A stretch of 64,000 nt of DNA. It comes from Pontiella sp. Lineage in GTDB: Bacteria > Verrucomicrobiota > Kiritimatiellia > Kiritimatiellales > Pontiellaceae. Below, one piece after another: positions 5,296 to 13,506 of this stretch. Where the stretch lies: positions 32,001 to 96,000 of the forward strand of contig JBNKHE010000006.1 of the NCBI GenBank assembly GCA_050290185.1, given 5' to 3'. The stretch's first letter is position 1; each line of letters starts with the position of its first letter. The notes below the pieces were generated by a model, which saw only the letters and a program-made list of their open reading frames with translations, did not search any database and was not told where the DNA came from. The translations under genes and the position numbers were made by a program.

Positions 5296-5595
5296 ATGCC
5301 CTCCTTCCACCTCCATGTTACCACACCCGAAGGCAACATCTGGGACGATGATGCCGAAGCGGTTGTCGCATACGGCGTCGAGGGCTCGATGGGCATCCTC
5401 GCCAACCATGCGCCGATGATCACCGCACTGCAGCCCGGCGTGCTCAAGGTGCAGGGTGCGGACAAGACGCAGTATTATGCCGCCGGCGAAGGGATTCTTG
5501 AAGTGCGCACCGACAAGCAGGTCGTTCTGATCATCGACTATGCCGAAGCCTACGACACCGAGGCCGAGGCCAAGAAGCACCTCGATCCGGAGTAG
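5296..5595 (+). CDS. atpC: F1 ATP synthase subunit epsilon (short, 99 aa)
   Basis: VTTPEG and GILANHAPMITALQPG beta-sandwich motifs; follows atpD. Confidence 0.93.
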   Translation: MPSFHLHVTTPEGNIWDDDAEAVVAYGVEGSMGILANHAPMITALQPGVLKVQGADKTQYYAAGEGILEVRTDKQVVLIIDYAEAYDTEAEAKKHLDPE

Positions 5596-5603
5596 GCTTC
5601 GCC

Positions 5604-6449
5604 CTATTTCACGGTCTTGCGAGTTTTCTGCACCAGCGTCTTCCACAACGCTTCCGGATCGTTGGCGGCAGCCAACAGGGCATCGCGCGCCTCCTTTTCG
5701 CGGAAGGTCTGCGACAGGCCGGACAAAAGCTTCAGGTAAAACGCGCTGGTCGCGGTCGGGATCACCATGAAGAAAAAGATCCGGGTGAGCGTACGGCCGG
5801 GACCGCCGAAGTTGATGCCCTTCTTATGGATACCCAGCGCCATGGTCAAACCGCCGCCTTCCACCCCGCGCACATGCGGGAAGGCCAGCCCGCAGTCCAC
5901 CGCCGTGCTCACGATGGCTTCGCGCTGCATGGCGAGGTCGAACAACTGGTCGGCGCTGACGACAAACGATTCCTGCTGCATGCGCTCGCACATTTCCCGC
6001 AGCACCTCTTCCGGCGTTGAGCCGGTCAGCGGCGCAACCATCAGCGACGGCGCCGAGAAGCGGGCAATGCCCATTTTCTGCTTTTCGCCATAGACGCGGC
6101 TGGTGCGTTCGCGGGCGACCACCTCGGAAGGAATGTAGAGGAAGCGGGTGCAGTTGCGGCAACGGTTCAGTTCGTCGGCGCGCAGCACTTCGTTGACCTG
6201 GCTTTTGGGCAGCTGGATGCCGCAGCCGGTGCAGTGGTCGTCGATGATCGGCACGACGGCTTCGGGATGCTTTTGCAGGAGCCGGTTGATATGCGTCTTG
6301 ACCGGTTGGGCGAGATCCGACCCCAACAGGGCGATGCTCTTTTCGAGCGCATCAAGCGGTGCCTTGGAGCGGGCGGCCTTGGTCTGCATGCGGGCCACGA
6401 TGAGTTCCTGCAACTGGATCAACTGGTTGATGGTTTTTCGGTTAGTCAT
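5604..6449 (-). CDS. C4 zinc-ribbon (CTGC...CRNC) + PTS EIIA (Fru/Ntr-type) fusion protein
   Basis: AVVPIIDDHCTGC...LNRCRNCTRFLY resembles the zf-RING_7/DUF164 ribbon; C-terminal REAIVSTAVDCGLAFPHVR EIIA motif. Confidence 0.85.
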   Translation of the reverse strand: MTNRKTINQLIQLQELIVARMQTKAARSKAPLDALEKSIALLGSDLAQPVKTHINRLLQKHPEAVVPIIDDHCTGCGIQLPKSQVNEVLRADELNRCRNCTRFLYIPSEVVARERTSRVYGEKQKMGIARFSAPSLMVAPLTGSTPEEVLREMCERMQQESFVVSADQLFDLAMQREAIVSTAVDCGLAFPHVRGVEGGGLTMALGIHKKGINFGGPGRTLTRIFFFMVIPTATSAFYLKLLSGLSQTFREKEARDALLAAANDPEALWKTLVQKTRKTVK

Positions 6450-6451
6450 GG

Positions 6452-8131
6452 TTATCCCTCCTCTACAATTTCCGATTGGTTTTCAATGATCGAACAGGCC
6501 CGAGCCAAGGCTTCGTCGATGCTTGGGCAGAAGTTTTCCGAACCGACAGCCTGAAGAAACCCGGATTGCCTGAAGACGGACATGGGCTGTTTCGTGACAC
6601 CGGAAAAGATCAGCCGCGTCTTCTGTCGCCAGCACTTTTGGTGCAACTCTTCGAGTACGTGCAGGCCGGTGGCATCGATGGTCGGCACGTTGCGGATGCG
6701 GATGATGAGCACGGAAACATTGTGCTCGACCTGATGCAGCGCATTCCAGAAGGTATCGGCCATGCCGAAAAAGAAGGGGCCCTCGACTTCGTAGACCTCG
6801 ACCCCCGGGGGAACGTCTCTGGTGGTAATGGACATCGGATCGAATTCGGGATCCTCGTCGCCCTTCAGATTGTTGGTGATCATGCTGACGTTGGCGATTT
6901 CGGACATACGGCGCATAAAGAGTAGCGACGAGAGCACAATACCGACTTGCACCGCCAAAGTAAGGTCCACGAGAACGGTCAAGCCAAAGGTGAGCAACAA
7001 AACCAGCTGATCGCTACGGGGTCCCTTGAGAATCGAGGCAAAGTGGCGGTGCTCGCTCATGTTGTAGCTTACCACCACGAGGATGCCGGCCAGCGACGCC
7101 AACGGAATTCGGGCCGCAACAGGAGCACAGAGCAACAAAATCAAGAGAAGCACACCGGCGTGGATCATGCCGGCGACCGGCGTCTTCGCACCGCTCTTGA
7201 CATTCGTAGCCGTGCGGGCGATTGCGCCCGTAGCTGGAATACCGCCAAAAAATACCCCGCCGATGTTGGCCAGTCCCTGCGCGATCAGTTCCGTATTCGG
7301 GCGGTGTTTACCGCCGATCATCCCGTCGGCAACCGTAGCAGACATCAGCGATTCAATGGCGGCGAGCAGCGCTACGGTGAAGGCTGCCGATACCAGCCCG
7401 CCCATCTGCCCGATATCAAGCGAAGGCAGGCCGGGCGATGGCAACATACGCGGTAGCTGGCCGAAGCGCCCGCCGATGGTTTCGACATCAAGGTTGAATA
7501 CTGCAACGGCGACTGTGGCCAGCACCATGGCAATCAGCATCCCCGGCAGGCGCGGAGCCAAGTGGTGCAGCAGGGCGATTATAAAAACCGTGCCAAGTCC
7601 GATGGCCGCAGTTGACGCGGAGAAGGATCCAAATGCGTGGAAATAGGCTCCCCACTTCGGGATGAATTCGGCGGGGACTTCGGCCATGCGCAATCCCAGG
7701 AGATCCTTGATCTGCGTGGAAAAGATGACGACAGCAATACCGGAGGTAAAGCCGGTGGTGACCGGGAAGGGAATGAAGCGGATCATGCCGCCGAGCTTGA
7801 AGACCCCGAAGAGAATCAGTATGACGCCGGCCATCAGCGTACACCAGGCGAGGCCGGCATAACCGTATTGCGCGACAATGCCGGAGACGATCACCACAAA
7901 GGCGCCGGTCGGCCCACCGATCTGGACCCGGCTGCCGCCGAGGAAGGCAATCAGAAATCCGGCAACGATGGCAGTGAACAGGCCGCGTTCGGGCGGCAGG
8001 CCGCTGGCGATGGCAAAGGCCATGGCCAGCGGCAGAGCTATGACGCCGACGGTCAGGCCTGCGATGCCGTCGGCGAGTAGCGTCTTAAGATTATAACCCT
8101 TTAGTAGCGTAAAGAGCTTGGGCTTGAACAT
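6452..8131 (-). CDS. SulP/SLC26 family anion permease with STAS domain
   Basis: ALPLAMAFAIASG, GGSRVQIGGPTGA, GAIARTATN, C-terminal GPFFFG...IDATGL STAS. Confidence 0.95.
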   Translation of the reverse strand: MFKPKLFTLLKGYNLKTLLADGIAGLTVGVIALPLAMAFAIASGLPPERGLFTAIVAGFLIAFLGGSRVQIGGPTGAFVVIVSGIVAQYGYAGLAWCTLMAGVILILFGVFKLGGMIRFIPFPVTTGFTSGIAVVIFSTQIKDLLGLRMAEVPAEFIPKWGAYFHAFGSFSASTAAIGLGTVFIIALLHHLAPRLPGMLIAMVLATVAVAVFNLDVETIGGRFGQLPRMLPSPGLPSLDIGQMGGLVSAAFTVALLAAIESLMSATVADGMIGGKHRPNTELIAQGLANIGGVFFGGIPATGAIARTATNVKSGAKTPVAGMIHAGVLLLILLLCAPVAARIPLASLAGILVVVSYNMSEHRHFASILKGPRSDQLVLLLTFGLTVLVDLTLAVQVGIVLSSLLFMRRMSEIANVSMITNNLKGDEDPEFDPMSITTRDVPPGVEVYEVEGPFFFGMADTFWNALHQVEHNVSVLIIRIRNVPTIDATGLHVLEELHQKCWRQKTRLIFSGVTKQPMSVFRQSGFLQAVGSENFCPSIDEALARACSIIENQSEIVEEG

Positions 8132-8147
8132 AGTTCTCCTGAGTGCA

Positions 8148-9590
8148 CTACATGAAGAATCTTACGTACAGATAGATGTGGGCCACGACCAGCGAGACGA
8201 GCATGAACGGGAATCCATATTTGGTGAATCCCATGAAGCTGATCTTGCAGTTATTACGATTGGCAATCTGCGAGATCACGACGTTAGCCGACGCACCCAC
8301 CAGCGTTCCGTTTCCGCCCAGACAGGCCCCGAGCGCCAACGCCCAAAGCAAGGGATTGTCAGCGCCCATCGCGAATCCCAGTTCAGGACTGATGCCCCTC
8401 ACCAGCGGAATCATGGCCATCACCAAAGGAATATTATCGAGGATGGCCGAAGCAATCGCGGCGAACCAAAGCAACGTCAACGCGGTTTTCTGCGGGTCTC
8501 CATCGCAAATGGTCAGAATGAATTCTCCCATGGCCTCGAAAACACCATGATGCTCCAAGGCGGCAATCATCATGAACAGGCCGGCAAAGAAGAGAATGGT
8601 GTTCCATTCCACATGCATCAATGCATGGTGAATATCCTTTTTACAAACCAGTACCATAACCATGCTCCCGGCCAGCGCAATAATGCCCGGCTCAATATGC
8701 AGAGCGTGCCCCGCAAAGAATCCGGCAAGCACCAGCCCGAAAACCACGAGCGCTTTCTTCAACACTACGGGTTCCAGAATCGCTTTTTCCGGGCGGGAGG
8801 CTTCAACACGCTTTCGGGTGGCATCGGTCGTCTTGATCGACCTGCGGAATAGCAGGAACATCACGCCCAGCAGGAGCACCATCATAATAAGAACAGGCGG
8901 TCCGAGGTTAACCAGGAAATCATTAAAGGTCAGGTCACTCCCCGAACCAATCAGGATATTCGGAGGGTCACCCACCAGGGTGGAGGTGCCACCGATATTG
9001 GAGAACACCGCTTCCATGATCAGAATCGGCGGCGCCGGCATCTCCAGGAGTTGACAGAGCAGGATCGTAATCGGCGCCATCAGAATGACGGTAGTTACAT
9101 TGTCAAGGAAGGCGGAGAGAACCGCGGTCATCACCATAAAGAAAATGGCAATGACCATGCCGTTGCCTTTTGCGAGACGTGCCAGCTTGATGGCCAGCCA
9201 TTCGAACACGCCGGTGTCGGTAAGCGTGTTAACAATCACCATCATACCGATCAACAAAAACAGTACATTCAGGTCGATGGAACCGAGAGCCCCTTTGGGA
9301 ATGTAATCTGCTTCAGCCGCCGATTGCTGCTCCGCGACGGACACGGTCGATTCCGGATGCTCCACCGTTACATGCTCTGCAACCGGGGTATCATGATCGA
9401 TCATCTGCTCGATGGCAACCGGGGCCGAAGCGTGATGATCCGCCGCCTGCTCTGCGGTATAAGGCACCAGGCCGAGACCAATCATCACAGCAGCGCCAAT
9501 GAGAGAGGCGATGGTTTTGTCGAGCAGTTCCGTGGCAATGAAAAAATAGACCACAAGGAACACGGCAATGGGTAAAATCATATCATGCAT
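8148..9590 (-). CDS. ArsB/NhaD (IT superfamily) transporter
   Basis: LSAFLDNVTT, NIGGTSTLVGDPPN, LGGNGTLVGASAN repeats; many TM helices. Confidence 0.92.
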   Translation of the reverse strand: MHDMILPIAVFLVVYFFIATELLDKTIASLIGAAVMIGLGLVPYTAEQAADHHASAPVAIEQMIDHDTPVAEHVTVEHPESTVSVAEQQSAAEADYIPKGALGSIDLNVLFLLIGMMVIVNTLTDTGVFEWLAIKLARLAKGNGMVIAIFFMVMTAVLSAFLDNVTTVILMAPITILLCQLLEMPAPPILIMEAVFSNIGGTSTLVGDPPNILIGSGSDLTFNDFLVNLGPPVLIMMVLLLGVMFLLFRRSIKTTDATRKRVEASRPEKAILEPVVLKKALVVFGLVLAGFFAGHALHIEPGIIALAGSMVMVLVCKKDIHHALMHVEWNTILFFAGLFMMIAALEHHGVFEAMGEFILTICDGDPQKTALTLLWFAAIASAILDNIPLVMAMIPLVRGISPELGFAMGADNPLLWALALGACLGGNGTLVGASANVVISQIANRNNCKISFMGFTKYGFPFMLVSLVVAHIYLYVRFFM

Positions 9591-9605
9591 GGGGAAACCT
9601 ATAAA

Positions 9606-10523
9606 TTAGAAGTTGATCACGTTGTCGAGCACGACGCTCTTGTCGATGACGCCGATCCAGCGGCCCTTTTCGTCGACGACATAGAGCTTGGTGAAATTCC
9701 GGATCGCGAGATCGAATACGATTTCCATAATGGTGTAATCCACCGGAACAGTCTTGGCGCTGGATTCCATCATGTCGCGCGCCAAGGTGTTGCGTTCGTC
9801 TTCGAAATATTTTTCAAAGGGATCGAACTCGGCGATGAAGGAGACACTCTTCAGCTTGGAAAAGAAGTCTGGCAGGCCGTAGCGGAAAAGCCGTTCTACG
9901 GTGATTTCACCGAGAATTTCGTGATTTTCATTGATGACGGGAATCGCCATCAGGTTGTTCACGCTCATCGTATGCGTGCATTTCGAGACGGGTTCGTCCT
10001 CGCGAATGCTGAAGCGCGGCGGCCGCATGATGTCGCGAGCTTCGATGACCTTGTCGATCCGTGGATTGTGTTGCTTGACGATATTACGCAGTGCCTCACC
10101 ATCCTGCGCCGAGAACACTCCATCGCGCACGTCGGAATCCATCAGCAAGCGGGAAAGCTGCGCCATCAGCTTGAGCGAGATGGAGGCATCGGAAGCCGGC
10201 ACCAAAAACAGGCAGACGATCTGCACGGGATTCTCCTCGAACATGACCGGTTCGTCGAAGGTCGCGACGGCGACCAGCGCCTGCGAGAGGTGTTCGAGCC
10301 GGGCATGCGGAAAGGCGATTCCCTCGCCGACTGCCGTACTGCGCTGCGATTCACGTTTGACCAATGCGGCGACAATGGTCTCGTGCGTGAGTTCGGGATT
10401 TACTTCGTAGAATTCACCGGAGCACAATGTTTGTACGACTTGCTCCAGAGCCTGGTTGCGGGAACCGGCTTCCAGTTTCGGCTGCCACGATTCCTCGCGG
10501 CGGGTGTAGTTCATTACATTCAT
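9606..10523 (-). CDS. PTS EIIA + tandem CBS domain protein
   Basis: RESQRSTAVGEGIAFPHARL EIIA motif; ARDIMRPP/IPVINE..GEIT and ARDMME/LYVVDE..GVID CBS pair. Confidence 0.88.
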   Translation of the reverse strand: MNVMNYTRREESWQPKLEAGSRNQALEQVVQTLCSGEFYEVNPELTHETIVAALVKRESQRSTAVGEGIAFPHARLEHLSQALVAVATFDEPVMFEENPVQIVCLFLVPASDASISLKLMAQLSRLLMDSDVRDGVFSAQDGEALRNIVKQHNPRIDKVIEARDIMRPPRFSIREDEPVSKCTHTMSVNNLMAIPVINENHEILGEITVERLFRYGLPDFFSKLKSVSFIAEFDPFEKYFEDERNTLARDMMESSAKTVPVDYTIMEIVFDLAIRNFTKLYVVDEKGRWIGVIDKSVVLDNVINF

Positions 10524-10536
10524 GGATTAGACTCCG

Positions 10537-11022
10537 TTATAGGTTGCTCTCGCCTTTCGCCTGCAGATAGTGGGAAAGTATGTTCTTGGCCTCGAGGGTA
10601 CCGACAATCCGCCCGCCCTCATCCACCACGGCGATCTCACGGATATGGTTCTGTTCCATCAGCTCCAGCACGTTCTTGAGCTGCGTGTCGGCGACCACGG
10701 TCACCGGCGGCTCCGCAAGATCCTGGCCGGTCTGGGCGTTAAGCGCATAGGCAATAGCGGGCAGCATGTCCTCCGCCTCATCCTTCTGCCGGGAAAGTTC
10801 CAGCACTTTCACGGCAATGTGCTTGGCCTGAATGACCCCGGCTAACTCGCCCGCTTCGTTTTCGAGATAGACCTTGTAGCGGTCCGATGAGCAAAGCACG
10901 TTGGCCAGCTTTTCGAGCGGCGTATCGCTCGGCGCCCGCAGGCAGGAAGATTCGATCAGATACGCGAGGTCCTTAACGGTTGTATTTTCCAGATTCTTTT
11001 TCACCCATCCCCTCTCATTCAT
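10537..11022 (-). CDS. Stand-alone CBS-pair protein
   Basis: LAGVIQAKHI and IREIAVVDEGGRIVGTL CBS motifs. Confidence 0.85.
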   Translation of the reverse strand: MNERGWVKKNLENTTVKDLAYLIESSCLRAPSDTPLEKLANVLCSSDRYKVYLENEAGELAGVIQAKHIAVKVLELSRQKDEAEDMLPAIAYALNAQTGQDLAEPPVTVVADTQLKNVLELMEQNHIREIAVVDEGGRIVGTLEAKNILSHYLQAKGESNL

Positions 11023-11025
11023 AAA

Positions 11026-12699
11026 TCAGGCTGCCGCGGTTTGGCGGCGCACGAGTTCCGCGCCGACCTTGCGCCGGGCGGCCCGCTGGTCGAGTATGCC
11101 CAGCAACTTTCCGCTCTCCTCGCTTTCGATGACCGGCAAGGCTTCCACTTGCGTATCGTGCAGCTCGCGCAAGGCCTCGGCCAGATTCATATTGGCCAGC
11201 AGGCGATCGTGCAGCGGTTGCATTACATCGCCAACCACCAGCCACAGCCAGGTATCGCGGTCGATCAAAACCTCTTTGAGCATGTCGAACGTCAAGACCC
11301 CGACAATGGTACCTTCCCCGGTAACGACGGGATACACGAGAGTGTCCTGCTCGGCAAAGTGCTGCACCACTTCGGCCAGCGGCGTACCCTCTTGCAAGGG
11401 TACGATGCCGGTATCAACAACATCCGACACCTTCAGCTCGGCCATCACGTCTTCTTCGGTCACATTACGGCCAATTTCCCCCGCCTTCTTGATCGCCAGC
11501 TTGGCAAACGCGGGGCCGATCAGCTGGACGCACAGGGTGGTTGCCGTGACGGTGAAGATGATCATGTCGCCCAGGCTCATCCCCTCGACCACCTGGATAT
11601 GCTGGAGGTTCTGGCTGGCGACGATCGACAGACCAACCGCCACGCCGCCCTGCGCGAAAAGAGCCATACCCATATAATTCTGGACCGGCTTTTCGGCCTT
11701 GGAAATGCGGGCGCCCAGGTAGGACCCAACCCATTTACCGATACTGCGCATCAGCACATAGGCCACCACCAGTCCCCAGAGCCAAGGCGGCATGTTGCCC
11801 AGCGAAAGACGCGCGCCAACGAGCACGAAGAAAATAATGTAGATCGGCGTCGAAAAAGACCGGATGACCTCGAACAACTGCTTACTGCGCTTGGGCGCCA
11901 GATTGATCAACACAATGCCGACCGACATCGTAGCCAGAATGACATCCATGCCGAAAGCCACCGCCAAACCGATGCACAGCAGGATGATGCCAATCGAAAT
12001 CCCCAGTCGTTTTTCTGTCTGGGGCATATAGTGCATCATGGCGTTAAGCACAAAGCCGGATGCGACCCCCAGAACGATGGCGCCACCGAGTTCGATCAAG
12101 GTGTGAAGCATGGTTAGCCCAACCGATTCGCCGCCACTGTTCGCCAGAATCGAGGCGATGCTGGTGCCCAGTCCGTAGAGCGTCATGGCCAGGGCGTCGT
12201 CGAGCGCCACGATGGCAACGATGGCGGTGGTCAGCACCCCAGCGGAGCGGTATTCCCAGAGCACGTCGATCGTCGAGGCCGGGTCCGTGGCCGAGGCAAT
12301 CGCCCCGAAAACGATGCCGGCCGCAATCGCCATGATCCAGTCGTGACCGACAAAATAGACGATCACCGTCGATGCAATCCCCACCAGAAAGAACGCCGCC
12401 AGCCCCTCGCCCAGCAGAATGGCCGTGAACTGCTTGCCGTATTTTTTGAAGATGCTTCCACTCAGCTCGCCGCCCACCAGAAAGCCGATCAGCCCCAGCG
12501 CAAAGTTGTTGAAGGGCCGCAGCGCTGCGATGTCTCCGGGATGCAGCAAGCCCAGTCCGGTATCGCCAATCAGTACGCCGACGACAATGTAGCCGACAAC
12601 CTGTGGAATGTTCAGGCGCTGGAAGATCCATGCGCCAACCACTCCACCGGCCACGCAAATGCCCAGCACCGCTAAAACGCCAAGGTGGAAATCAGGCAT
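11026..12699 (-). CDS. Cation:proton antiporter (CPA family) with C-terminal CBS pair
   Basis: IPQVVGYIVVGVLIG, ASATDPAST, VALDDA, QGGVAVGL; C-terminal YPVVTGEGTIVGVL and LPVIESEESGKLLGIL CBS motifs. Confidence 0.92.
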   Translation of the reverse strand: MPDFHLGVLAVLGICVAGGVVGAWIFQRLNIPQVVGYIVVGVLIGDTGLGLLHPGDIAALRPFNNFALGLIGFLVGGELSGSIFKKYGKQFTAILLGEGLAAFFLVGIASTVIVYFVGHDWIMAIAAGIVFGAIASATDPASTIDVLWEYRSAGVLTTAIVAIVALDDALAMTLYGLGTSIASILANSGGESVGLTMLHTLIELGGAIVLGVASGFVLNAMMHYMPQTEKRLGISIGIILLCIGLAVAFGMDVILATMSVGIVLINLAPKRSKQLFEVIRSFSTPIYIIFFVLVGARLSLGNMPPWLWGLVVAYVLMRSIGKWVGSYLGARISKAEKPVQNYMGMALFAQGGVAVGLSIVASQNLQHIQVVEGMSLGDMIIFTVTATTLCVQLIGPAFAKLAIKKAGEIGRNVTEEDVMAELKVSDVVDTGIVPLQEGTPLAEVVQHFAEQDTLVYPVVTGEGTIVGVLTFDMLKEVLIDRDTWLWLVVGDVMQPLHDRLLANMNLAEALRELHDTQVEALPVIESEESGKLLGILDQRAARRKVGAELVRRQTAAA

Positions 12700-12703
12700 C
12701 GCT

Positions 12704-13354
12704 TTACCCCTCTGCCATTAGTTGTGAATAGATGAAGGCGGGATCGTCGGAAGCAATGATCTTCTCGCGAGTGGCGCCATCCTTCAGACGACTGCTCACC
12801 GCCGAGAGTGTCCGGATATACTTGGTGTGCTGGTCTTGGCGGGCTGCCAGCATACAGACAATCTGCACCGGTTGGTTGTCGAGCGAGGAATAGCCGGAAA
12901 TGGGTCGCTTGCTGACCGCCACCGCCATGACCAGATCAGACACGGAATCGATGCGCACATGCGGCACGCCAATGCCAAAGCCAATGCCGGTGCTCATCAG
13001 TTCTTCTCGGGCAAAAATGCCGTTAAGCAGCTCGTCCCGGTTGTGCACCAACGATGAGGTTGCCAATAGATCAACCAGTTTCGTCAACACAGTCTTCTTG
13101 TCCACCTCTTCGAGAATGGAAATTCGTTCCGGGGTCAACAGGGAGGATCCGCCCTTACCAGTCGAAGCAATCGCAGGAGCCGACTTGCTGGAAAGCCGTG
13201 TGTTGACCCAGTTTTCCACATCCTCGCGCTTGAAGCGCCAAGTCGTACCCAGCTTACCACCGGGCAGGTCACCCTTTTGCGCCCAGTCATACACCGTTCG
13301 CTCAGAAACCCGCAAATATGCGGCCACTTCCTCAATTGTCATGATTTCGTGCAT
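12704..13354 (-). CDS. Excisionase-type HTH (HTH_17) + PTS EIIA fusion protein
   Basis: MTIEEVAAYLRVSERTVYDWAQKGDLPGGKLGTTWRF HTH; REELMSTGIGFGIGVPHVR EIIA; start set at ATG 13354 with GGAGGG RBS. Confidence 0.92.
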   Translation of the reverse strand: MHEIMTIEEVAAYLRVSERTVYDWAQKGDLPGGKLGTTWRFKREDVENWVNTRLSSKSAPAIASTGKGGSSLLTPERISILEEVDKKTVLTKLVDLLATSSLVHNRDELLNGIFAREELMSTGIGFGIGVPHVRIDSVSDLVMAVAVSKRPISGYSSLDNQPVQIVCMLAARQDQHTKYIRTLSAVSSRLKDGATREKIIASDDPAFIYSQLMAEG

Positions 13355-13506
13355 ATACGCATCCCTCCGTGAATATTCGCGGGAAATTACATCATACCGC
13401 ACTGTATGCAACATAAATGTTGGGTTTGTTTCGAACTGCACTTTATCCTGTTCATTGTCCTCGCTGGATTTTATCTTGCCCTTTTAACCGTTGAGGGTCG
13501 ATTTCC

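Follow-up and report, generated by a model that had tools for sequence, protein, structure and literature searches.

Do EIIA domains of the phosphotransferase system (PTS) that are encoded beside ion transporters regulate those transporters, and does a string of such genes form one system? The question is raised by a locus of Pontiella sp. (assembly GCA_050290185.1). The window analyzed here is a stretch of 64,000 nucleotides (contig JBNKHE010000006.1, positions 32,001 to 96,000 of the forward strand). It contains a string of seven open reading frames (ORFs) on the minus strand, with successive gaps of 4, 3, 13, 15, 16, and 2 nt. The genes encode, in order, an HTH-EIIA protein, a cation/H+ antiporter with a CBS pair (CPA-CBS), a stand-alone CBS pair, an EIIA-CBS fusion, a permease of the IT superfamily, a SulP anion transporter, and a Zn-ribbon protein with an EIIA domain (Zn-EIIA). 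A preliminary description made from the sequence alone had given this order and a spacing of 2-16 nt, and the ORF calls and Pfam agree with it. It had also taken the string for a single system wired to three transporters. We find that the seven genes are a stack of two older modules (module A, HTH-EIIA and CPA-CBS; module B, EIIA-CBS and the IT permease) and two add-ons, not one ancient system. The pairing of an EIIA with a transporter is real, widespread, and apparently unstudied, and it is likely a variant of EIIA-Ntr-type transporter control.

Each named domain of the seven proteins scores over its Pfam cut-off, and the nearest named homologues come from Pontiella or Pontiellaceae (identity up to 86%). 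CBS pairs were found by Pfam in the three proteins named earlier as carrying them: CPA-CBS, the stand-alone CBS protein, and EIIA-CBS. The three EIIA domains belong to PTS EIIA (Fru/Mtl/Ntr, PF00359; 73-94 bits vs. a cut-off of 27) and fall under the PtsN cut-off of TIGR01419 (60, 61, and 36 bits vs. 138.7). All three keep the active-site Arg and, as first noticed in the sequence, the phosphoacceptor His (GVPHVR, AFPHAR, and AFPHVR, each with an RE motif upstream). This RE..PHxR arrangement aligns with the RE..PHGR active site of PtsN (3URR).

EIIA-CBS is followed by a transporter gene

We collected 100 regions around EIIA-CBS matches, picked for diversity, with two genera sampled more deeply; the sample is not random. 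Together with further loci and the window, and minus two duplicates, these regions gave 121 EIIA-CBS genes. A transporter gene lies directly downstream in 118 of the 121 loci: an IT permease gene in 105 and a ClC gene in 13, with neither in three. Metagenomes contributed another 80 loci, 69 of which have at least 300 nt of downstream sequence. The IT gene follows EIIA-CBS in 64 of these 69 and precedes it in two; in the other three it was not called, and one of them shows the beginning of an IT gene with a frameshift. The adjacency spans three phyla: the EIIA-CBS clusters of four metagenome loci with the pair are named Hydrogenedentota, and in Fusobacterium vincentii EIIA-CBS is followed by two IT genes. 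As protein matches only, with no neighborhoods, EIIA-CBS is also named from Planctomycetota, Myxococcales, and Ca. Tritonobacter, and Atlas clusters, again of proteins without neighborhoods, list Lentisphaerota, Cloacimonadota, and Spirochaetota. The Fusobacterium record (NZ_CP084075.1, locus L180) is a 2.1-Mb sequence filed as a plasmid, yet it carries chromosome-type genes.

Five residues of EIIA-CBS (R57, H73, R75, P218, and G291) do not vary across the 121 sequences, among which pairs are as low as 19% identical, and the PHxR motif is kept in 139 of 150 library representatives. The AlphaFold model of the protein has a pLDDT of 91, and its EIIA half best matches PtsN (1A6J). Distances between EIIA-CBS proteins correlate with distances between the IT permeases (r = 0.89 over 146 pairs; the maximum in 500 shuffles was 0.06). 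In genomes with two to four pairs, the cognate permease was kept in 24 of 28 within-genome paralogue tests, with the paralogues mostly 21-30% identical. Module B is the old core of the string.

Exchange of the partner and fusions

In genus g32, EIIA-CBS is followed in 13 of 13 loci by a ClC that has no CBS domain and ends soon after the linker. An IT orthologue was not found in any of the five g32 genomes searched (four gave best E-values of 1e-10 to 1e-14, and the fifth gave no match). The EIIA-CBS proteins of this genus form one long-branched clade among IT-paired ones in a quick IQ-TREE phylogeny, rooted at the midpoint and with SH-aLRT support only. The ClCs of loci L162, L163, L165-L167, L169, and L171 are truncated immediately behind the linker that leads into the CBS pair in relatives.

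EIIA domains also occur with transporters in other arrangements. In protein P0186 (418 aa), the Mrp subunit MnhG is fused to EIIA-CBS; in locus L170, a solo EIIA lies 3 nt upstream of a ClC-CBS gene; and CPA-EIIA fusions occur downstream of the EIIA-CBS/IT pair in L032, L225, and L229. The genome that contains the string itself encodes a CPA-EIIA and an APC-EIIA fusion.

Module A and a candidate operator

CPA-CBS directly follows HTH-EIIA in 8 of 12 loci, the window included. Among solo EIIAs related to HTH-EIIA, a CPA gene comes next in 6 of 13, in the class of the window and in another class of the phylum. The best PDB matches of CPA-CBS are NapA structures (4BWZ/5BZ2). Electrogenic CPA2 antiporters have been described by motif rules: non-polar residues at positions 1 and 4, no Glu at position 5, Asp-Asp at positions 6-7, and Lys at position 8 (PMC6181914). 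CPA-CBS conforms to these rules for the NapA/NhaA type (A137-T-D-P140, I163, D167-D168, and K322, the last aligned to the GK of NapA; PMC6181914), the Asp-Asp is present in 31 of 33 homologues, and we predict electrogenic Na+/H+ antiport by this protein. E98 and R318 are nearby and could mimic the electroneutral NHA2 type.

The transcriptional arm proposed in the preliminary description gained a candidate site. A promoter-like sequence conserved in relatives precedes HTH-EIIA (-35 TTGCAT at 13411-13406, a spacer of 16 nt, and -10 TAATTT at 13389-13384). Four imperfect direct repeats with a 9-10-nt period overlap its predicted hexamers. Their score of 22/24 was matched by none of 200 shuffles and by 7 of 2792 other upstream regions of the genome, and 11 of 22 homologous upstream regions score at least 22; the motif was defined post hoc from the same sequences and overlaps the promoter hexamers. 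A palindromic operator, also read post hoc, was set aside; the direct repeats fit more of the conserved bases. We take the repeats as a candidate operator, and as a lead to autorepression by HTH-EIIA rather than a result. A general promoter and terminator scan gave counts at chance level and missed the conserved site that was later found by alignment. The HTH domain had no match in the PDB, and a BldC-like mode of binding is weakly suggested by low NCBIfam scores.

A PTS relay encoded elsewhere in the genome

No match of the genome-wide searches to EI, HPr, or EIIC falls inside the window, as had been stated for the window before. Profile searches of the contigs located the relay elsewhere, where it had been suggested to look for it: the genome carries two EI genes, six HPr-like genes, HprK, and eight EIIA_2 domains. 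Both EIs score over the TIGR01417 cut-off; one is clustered with HPr and HprK, and the other has an N-terminus that reads as GAF-like from the sequence. The five EIIA domains outside the string comprise two transporter fusions (CPA and APC), one domain encoded before a CPA gene, a Zn-EIIA paralogue, and one on a 534-nt contig. The PTS permease families PF02378, PF02302, PF03613, and PF13303 had no matches in the genome, which is 95.5% complete; other EII families were not searched. With EI, HPr, and HprK present and no PTS permease found, the EIIAs of this genome are therefore likely regulatory.

The six HPr-like genes (C3:304395, C7:72596, C4:6928, C2:9415, C4:301661, and C1:693793) all keep the His of G-x-H-x-R, and five of them lie apart from other PTS genes, in what looks like an expanded regulatory PTS for which no permease was found.

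How the modules may work

We favor, with fair confidence and on grounds of sequence and analogy, a reading in which the EI-HPr relay likely phosphorylates the EIIA protein of each module, and this EIIA likely binds the ion transporter encoded next to it and gates it. Phosphate would pass from phosphoenolpyruvate (PEP) to EI, to HPr, and then to the active-site His of the EIIA (His73 in EIIA-CBS and its counterpart in HTH-EIIA). The state of the EIIA would reach the transporter through a CBS pair; in module A the transporter carries this pair, and in module B the EIIA does. By analogy with PtsN and YcgO, the unphosphorylated EIIA would hold the transporter shut, and ion flux would track the carbon and energy state of the cell. 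HTH-EIIA may additionally repress the shared promoter through the direct repeats.

Several observations weigh against gating by contact. Adjacent genes share history anyway; the correlation of distances is therefore explained by shared history and is no proof of contact. The informative point is that the pair was kept together through very old duplications. The PHxR motif is missing in 11 of the 150 library representatives. No IT gene was found in one of the genomes that supply the three loci without an adjacent transporter, and 4 of the 12 HTH-EIIA loci have no CPA neighbor. Clusters of look-alike permeases are most frequent in Bacillota and Actinomycetota, and an EIIA partner is probably not obligatory there. 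A weak search for longer fused forms found no EIIA-CBS-IT fusion and only three CPA-EIIA fusions. The exchange of IT for ClC also counts for less than its 13 loci: the g32 EIIA-CBS proteins group in one clade, and the swap is therefore a single evolutionary event. CBS-less ClCs of the same lineage occur without an adjacent EIIA-CBS (L161-L163, L165-L167, L169, and L171), and in several genomes with such ClCs no EIIA-CBS was found by homologue search; the loss of the CBS pair therefore predates the pairing. The swap, moreover, sits in the other clade of EIIA-CBS; in the permeases of that clade, two of the four OCA2-like positions are different. A complex prediction for EIIA-CBS and the IT permease scored 0.08 against a mark of 0.32, which is evidence neither for nor against.

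The strongest competitor is co-regulation without contact, in which the genes form a salt or pH homeostasis cluster and the EIIAs act on DNA or other targets. HTH-EIIA has a DNA-binding domain of its own and a candidate operator, Zn-EIIA is widespread and mostly encoded far from transporters, and look-alike permeases are common in phyla beyond those where the partner was examined. However, EIIA-CBS has no DNA-binding domain, and yet the transporter gene stays downstream of it in nearly all loci, even where one transporter fold has replaced another; EIIA is also found covalently fused to CPA, APC, and MnhG. We consider co-regulation alone unlikely.

The string is not one conserved unit

Conservation of the neighborhood, which the preliminary description had named as a check, holds strongly for EIIA and transporter but not for the seven genes together. 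We compared 21 distinct loci of close relatives and counted for each gene only those with enough flanking sequence. IT was present in 21/21, the stand-alone CBS gene in 18/18, CPA-CBS in 16/17, HTH-EIIA in 16/17, SulP in 12/18, and Zn-EIIA in 8/16; the complete set of seven was found in only 5 of 13 fully covered loci. The stand-alone CBS gene is missing from most distant loci. The best explanation for SulP and Zn-EIIA is that they joined later, within Pontiellaceae, and they need not be wired to the other genes. The SulP protein scores 393 bits against the TIGR00815 cut-off of 380 (STAS domain, 56 bits) and remains under the DauA and BicA cut-offs. Zn-EIIA is near-universal in the class (111 of 121 genomes), mostly in single copy, with varied neighbors and nearly always outside such a string. 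The four genomes of the window's family have two full copies and nearly all others have one; the copy in the string is therefore likely a recent duplicate. Its paralogue, 66% identical, lies on contig C4 (C4:218206-219051). The CxxC pairs of Zn-EIIA look invariant and its PHVR is kept; the protein looks like an uncharacterized core regulator of Kiritimatiellia. Family f25 mostly has no Zn-EIIA (2 of 10 have it).

The integrated system proposed earlier would also have adenylates or cyclic di-AMP (c-di-AMP) act on the CBS pairs and, with the PTS state, gate all three transporters. The canonical ribose-phosphate motif of CBS domains is G-h-h-T/S-x-x-D; binders of c-di-AMP are not known to depend on it. 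Its Asp is missing in all six CBS motifs of the window; EIIA-CBS carries R211 and V297 at these positions, and only 45/121 and 12/121 homologues keep the Asp at the two positions. The CBS proteins score 16-20 bits against the CbpB cut-off of 125. Their fold matches, at 13-20% identity, span all types of CBS proteins, c-di-AMP binders included. Gating by adenylates or c-di-AMP thus has no motif support, and this part of the earlier proposal lacks support in that form. A diadenylate cyclase was found elsewhere in the genome, as had been asked of it, but one is likewise present in 11 of 14 control genomes. The tight spacing, the one conserved promoter-like site at the 5' end, the frequency of the stand-alone CBS, CPA-CBS, and HTH-EIIA genes alongside the core in close relatives, the cyclase, and the c-di-AMP-binding structures among the fold matches speak for integration. 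The incomplete sets, the CBS evidence, and the fact that no link between an EIIA and SulP was found make it quite improbable.

In the favored reading, the CBS pairs would act mainly as coupling surfaces. The segment between the two CBS motifs of EIIA-CBS (residues ~216-245) is strongly conserved within clades and tracks the type of permease: all 91 PxFF-type EIIA-CBS proteins pair with non-DEV permeases (88 of them DNV), and all 36 DEV permeases pair with EIIA-CBS of the PxH/Y type. The segment, which is also the least confident part of the model (low confidence at 221-240), would fit a docking surface.

Unorthodox PTS uptake, in which an EIIA passes phosphate to a substrate imported by the IT permease, has the annotation "PTS sugar transporter subunit IIA" and the intact His in its favor, but is hardly credible given that EIIB, EIIC, and EIID were not found in the genome (families searched), that the partners are CPA, ClC, Mrp, and ArsB-fold proteins, and that the string has no sugar-catabolic gene.

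Identity and cargo of the IT permease

The fold of the IT permease is closest to ArsB (10TP; TM scores 0.76/0.84, 19% identity) and is ArsB/DASS-like. The earlier label "ArsB/NhaD" stands at the superfamily level; at the level of families it does not, the protein being far under the NCBIfam cut-offs for ArsB and NhaD. An arsenite pump was rejected (116 vs. 457 bits, with no ars genes in the string), as was NhaD (45 vs. 80 and 42 vs. 577 bits). The best NCBIfam match, MamN, was under its cut-off, and the DASS cut-off was not reached either.

In OCA2, residues N442, V443, N476, and N489 have been placed in the putative pore and linked to chloride conductance (PMC10372470). N164, V165, N198, and N211 of the IT permease match the spacing of these residues, going by the residue numbers of that paper and without an alignment of OCA2. 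A second permease clade differs at two of the four positions: among 155 permeases overall, E replaces N164 in 42 and G replaces N211 in 41. No match to ClC was found in the genome of the window. The OCA2-like residues, the lack of a ClC match, and the exchange of IT for ClC therefore favor an inorganic anion such as chloride, which is the most likely single cargo, at less than even confidence; Na+/H+ exchange and carboxylate transport remain as the other options. A His/Glu-rich, low-confidence insertion of ~45 aa (IT residues ~46-94, window 9309-9455) occurs only in the closest relatives.

Features of the string and its surroundings

Table 1. Genes of the string and the candidate operator, with positions in the window.
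Feature	Position	Strand	Length	Role	Basis
HTH_17 (excisionase/BldC-like) + PTS_EIIA_2	12704..13354	minus	216 aa	module A regulator	Pfam; GGAGG before ATG
Na_H_Exchanger + C-terminal CBS pair, CPA2 NapA-like cation/H+ antiporter	11026..12699	minus	557 aa	module A transporter	Pfam, PDB matches
Stand-alone CBS pair	10537..11022	minus	161 aa		Pfam; best full-length PDB match TM0935, 1O50
EIIA (Ntr/Fru-type)-CBS pair fusion, PTS_EIIA_2 + CBS	9606..10523	minus	305 aa	module B regulator	Pfam, AlphaFold
IT superfamily permease, ArsB/OCA2-like type, CitMHS/ArsB	8148..9590	minus	480 aa	module B transporter	Pfam, fold
SulP/SLC26 anion transporter, Sulfate_transp + STAS	6452..8131	minus	559 aa	variable add-on	Pfam, TIGR00815
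Zn_ribbon_9 (C4, CdsZ/CT398-like) + PTS_EIIA_2	5604..6449	minus	281 aa	family-specific duplicate, variable add-on	Pfam; CT398 match
Predicted promoter + four imperfect direct repeats	13372..13411	minus		candidate HTH-EIIA operator	conserved in relatives

Divergent dnaE lies 152 nt from the start of the string, and at the other end 8 nt separate the string from the stop of convergent atpC. The ATP synthase operon adjoins the string in the window, L070, L071, and L124 and lies within less than 5 kb in L035 and L055; otherwise none was seen. A module abuts the operon in two lineages: here the two converge (5296-5604), and in L124 they share an orientation, with the module 104 nt after atpC. Beyond the operon, at C6:27705-29564 (~2.4 kb before the start of the window), an APC permease is fused to a degenerate EIIA (PHLL), which places the atp operon between EIIA-transporter genes. 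In locus L029, the APC-EIIA gene comes after Zn-EIIA.

A leader ORF in relatives

In 18 distinct relatives, an ORF of 95-124 aa precedes the CBS or EIIA-CBS gene by ~90-155 nt (L029, L030, L031, L033, L034, L071, L072, L075-L077, L079, L080, L083, L236, L239, L243, L246, and L250); in many close relatives it is ~105 aa long and placed between CPA-CBS and CBS. These ORFs encode a hydrophobic N-terminus and end in W-x-x-P-L-R-I-stop or a close variant, with varied synonymous codons; the two tested had no Pfam match. Leaders at four paralogous loci of the other class (L095, L114, L120, and L121) carry RAPP, RAGP, or RSPP close to their ends. RAPP/RGPP leaders with localization signals have been described, and "PLR" does not occur in the available part of that text (PMC12992588). 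By its sequence, the W-x-x-P-L-R-I ORF is a candidate for a new translation-arrest leader.

No leader of this type was found in the genome of the window; the window and three close relatives do not have the ORF (gaps of 3-41 nt). Many close relatives carry the extra ORF, and the seamless 2-16-nt spacing of the window is therefore probably a derived state.

A broader reading of these sequences is tentative and rather doubtful. EIIA-CBS would be a free, portable phosphohistidine switch whose CBS pair docks on unrelated folds (ArsB/OCA2-type, ClC, and Mrp) and gates them by the state of PEP. Its usual partner would be an OCA2-like chloride transporter, and most modules of Pontiellaceae would stand under a signal-bearing leader peptide with the new arrest motif W-x-x-P-L-R-I-stop.

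Relation to known systems

In E. coli, unphosphorylated PtsN binds and inhibits the CPA YcgO/CvrA (PMC11808508), and PtsN (EIIA-Ntr) also controls TrkA and KdpD in K+ transport (PMC13104625). The EIIAs of the string resemble PtsN in their fold (1A6J being the best match), in the active-site His and Arg, and in a relay for which no permease was found; one likely target, a CPA antiporter whose regulatory tail is cytoplasmic, recalls YcgO. Unlike PtsN, these are dedicated proteins whose genes adjoin those of their likely targets and whose EIIA domains are joined to CBS, HTH, or Zn-ribbon domains. The likely targets differ as well and include a CPA2 and an IT-fold permease, whereas YcgO is a CPA1 with RCK/CorC domains.

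As in transporters gated by CBS domains (MgtE, CorB/CNNM, and OpuA; PMC10710835) and in ClC-CBS, a CBS pair is tied to a transporter and, in CPA-CBS, fused to it. In module B, however, the pair is carried by the EIIA and would act in trans. The canonical Asp is also missing, and EIIA-CBS has the conserved insert between its CBS motifs. The IT permease shares the ArsB fold and the OCA2 residue spacing with the ArsB/OCA2/MamN branch (PMC10372470), but is distant from ArsB in sequence, under the ArsB, NhaD, DASS, and MamN cut-offs, and without ars genes nearby. In LacS, a fused EIIA-Glc-like domain regulates a secondary transporter through HPr-dependent phosphorylation, and a review terms it the sole such example (PMC10710835); its EIIA fold is different and its cargo is a sugar. 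The cytoplasmic domain of SLC4 (band 3) has an EIIA-Ntr-like fold and regulates an anion transporter, a structural analogy only (PMC5608694); unlike the string EIIAs, it is eukaryotic and fused.

A literature search, which did not cover supplements and three classic PTS reviews, found no description of an EIIA-CBS fusion or of EIIA-CBS/IT pairing. Those reviews (Barabote and Saier 2005; Deutscher 2006, 2014) reportedly discuss EIIA fusions to non-PTS transporters and may note part of this.

Significance

Many bacteria have EI, HPr, and several EIIAs but no PTS permease, and outside Proteobacteria little is known of the targets of such relays. The seven-gene string is a handy experimental kit and not a new kind of system. 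Its IT permease is a bacterial, expressible relative of the OCA2/ArsB branch, the cargo of which is debated; the replacement by ClC hints at chloride. The locus names concrete, testable targets for a PTS relay for which no permease was found. It also hints at a wider principle, with EIIA, CBS, and transporter being reshuffled together as a single regulatory unit.

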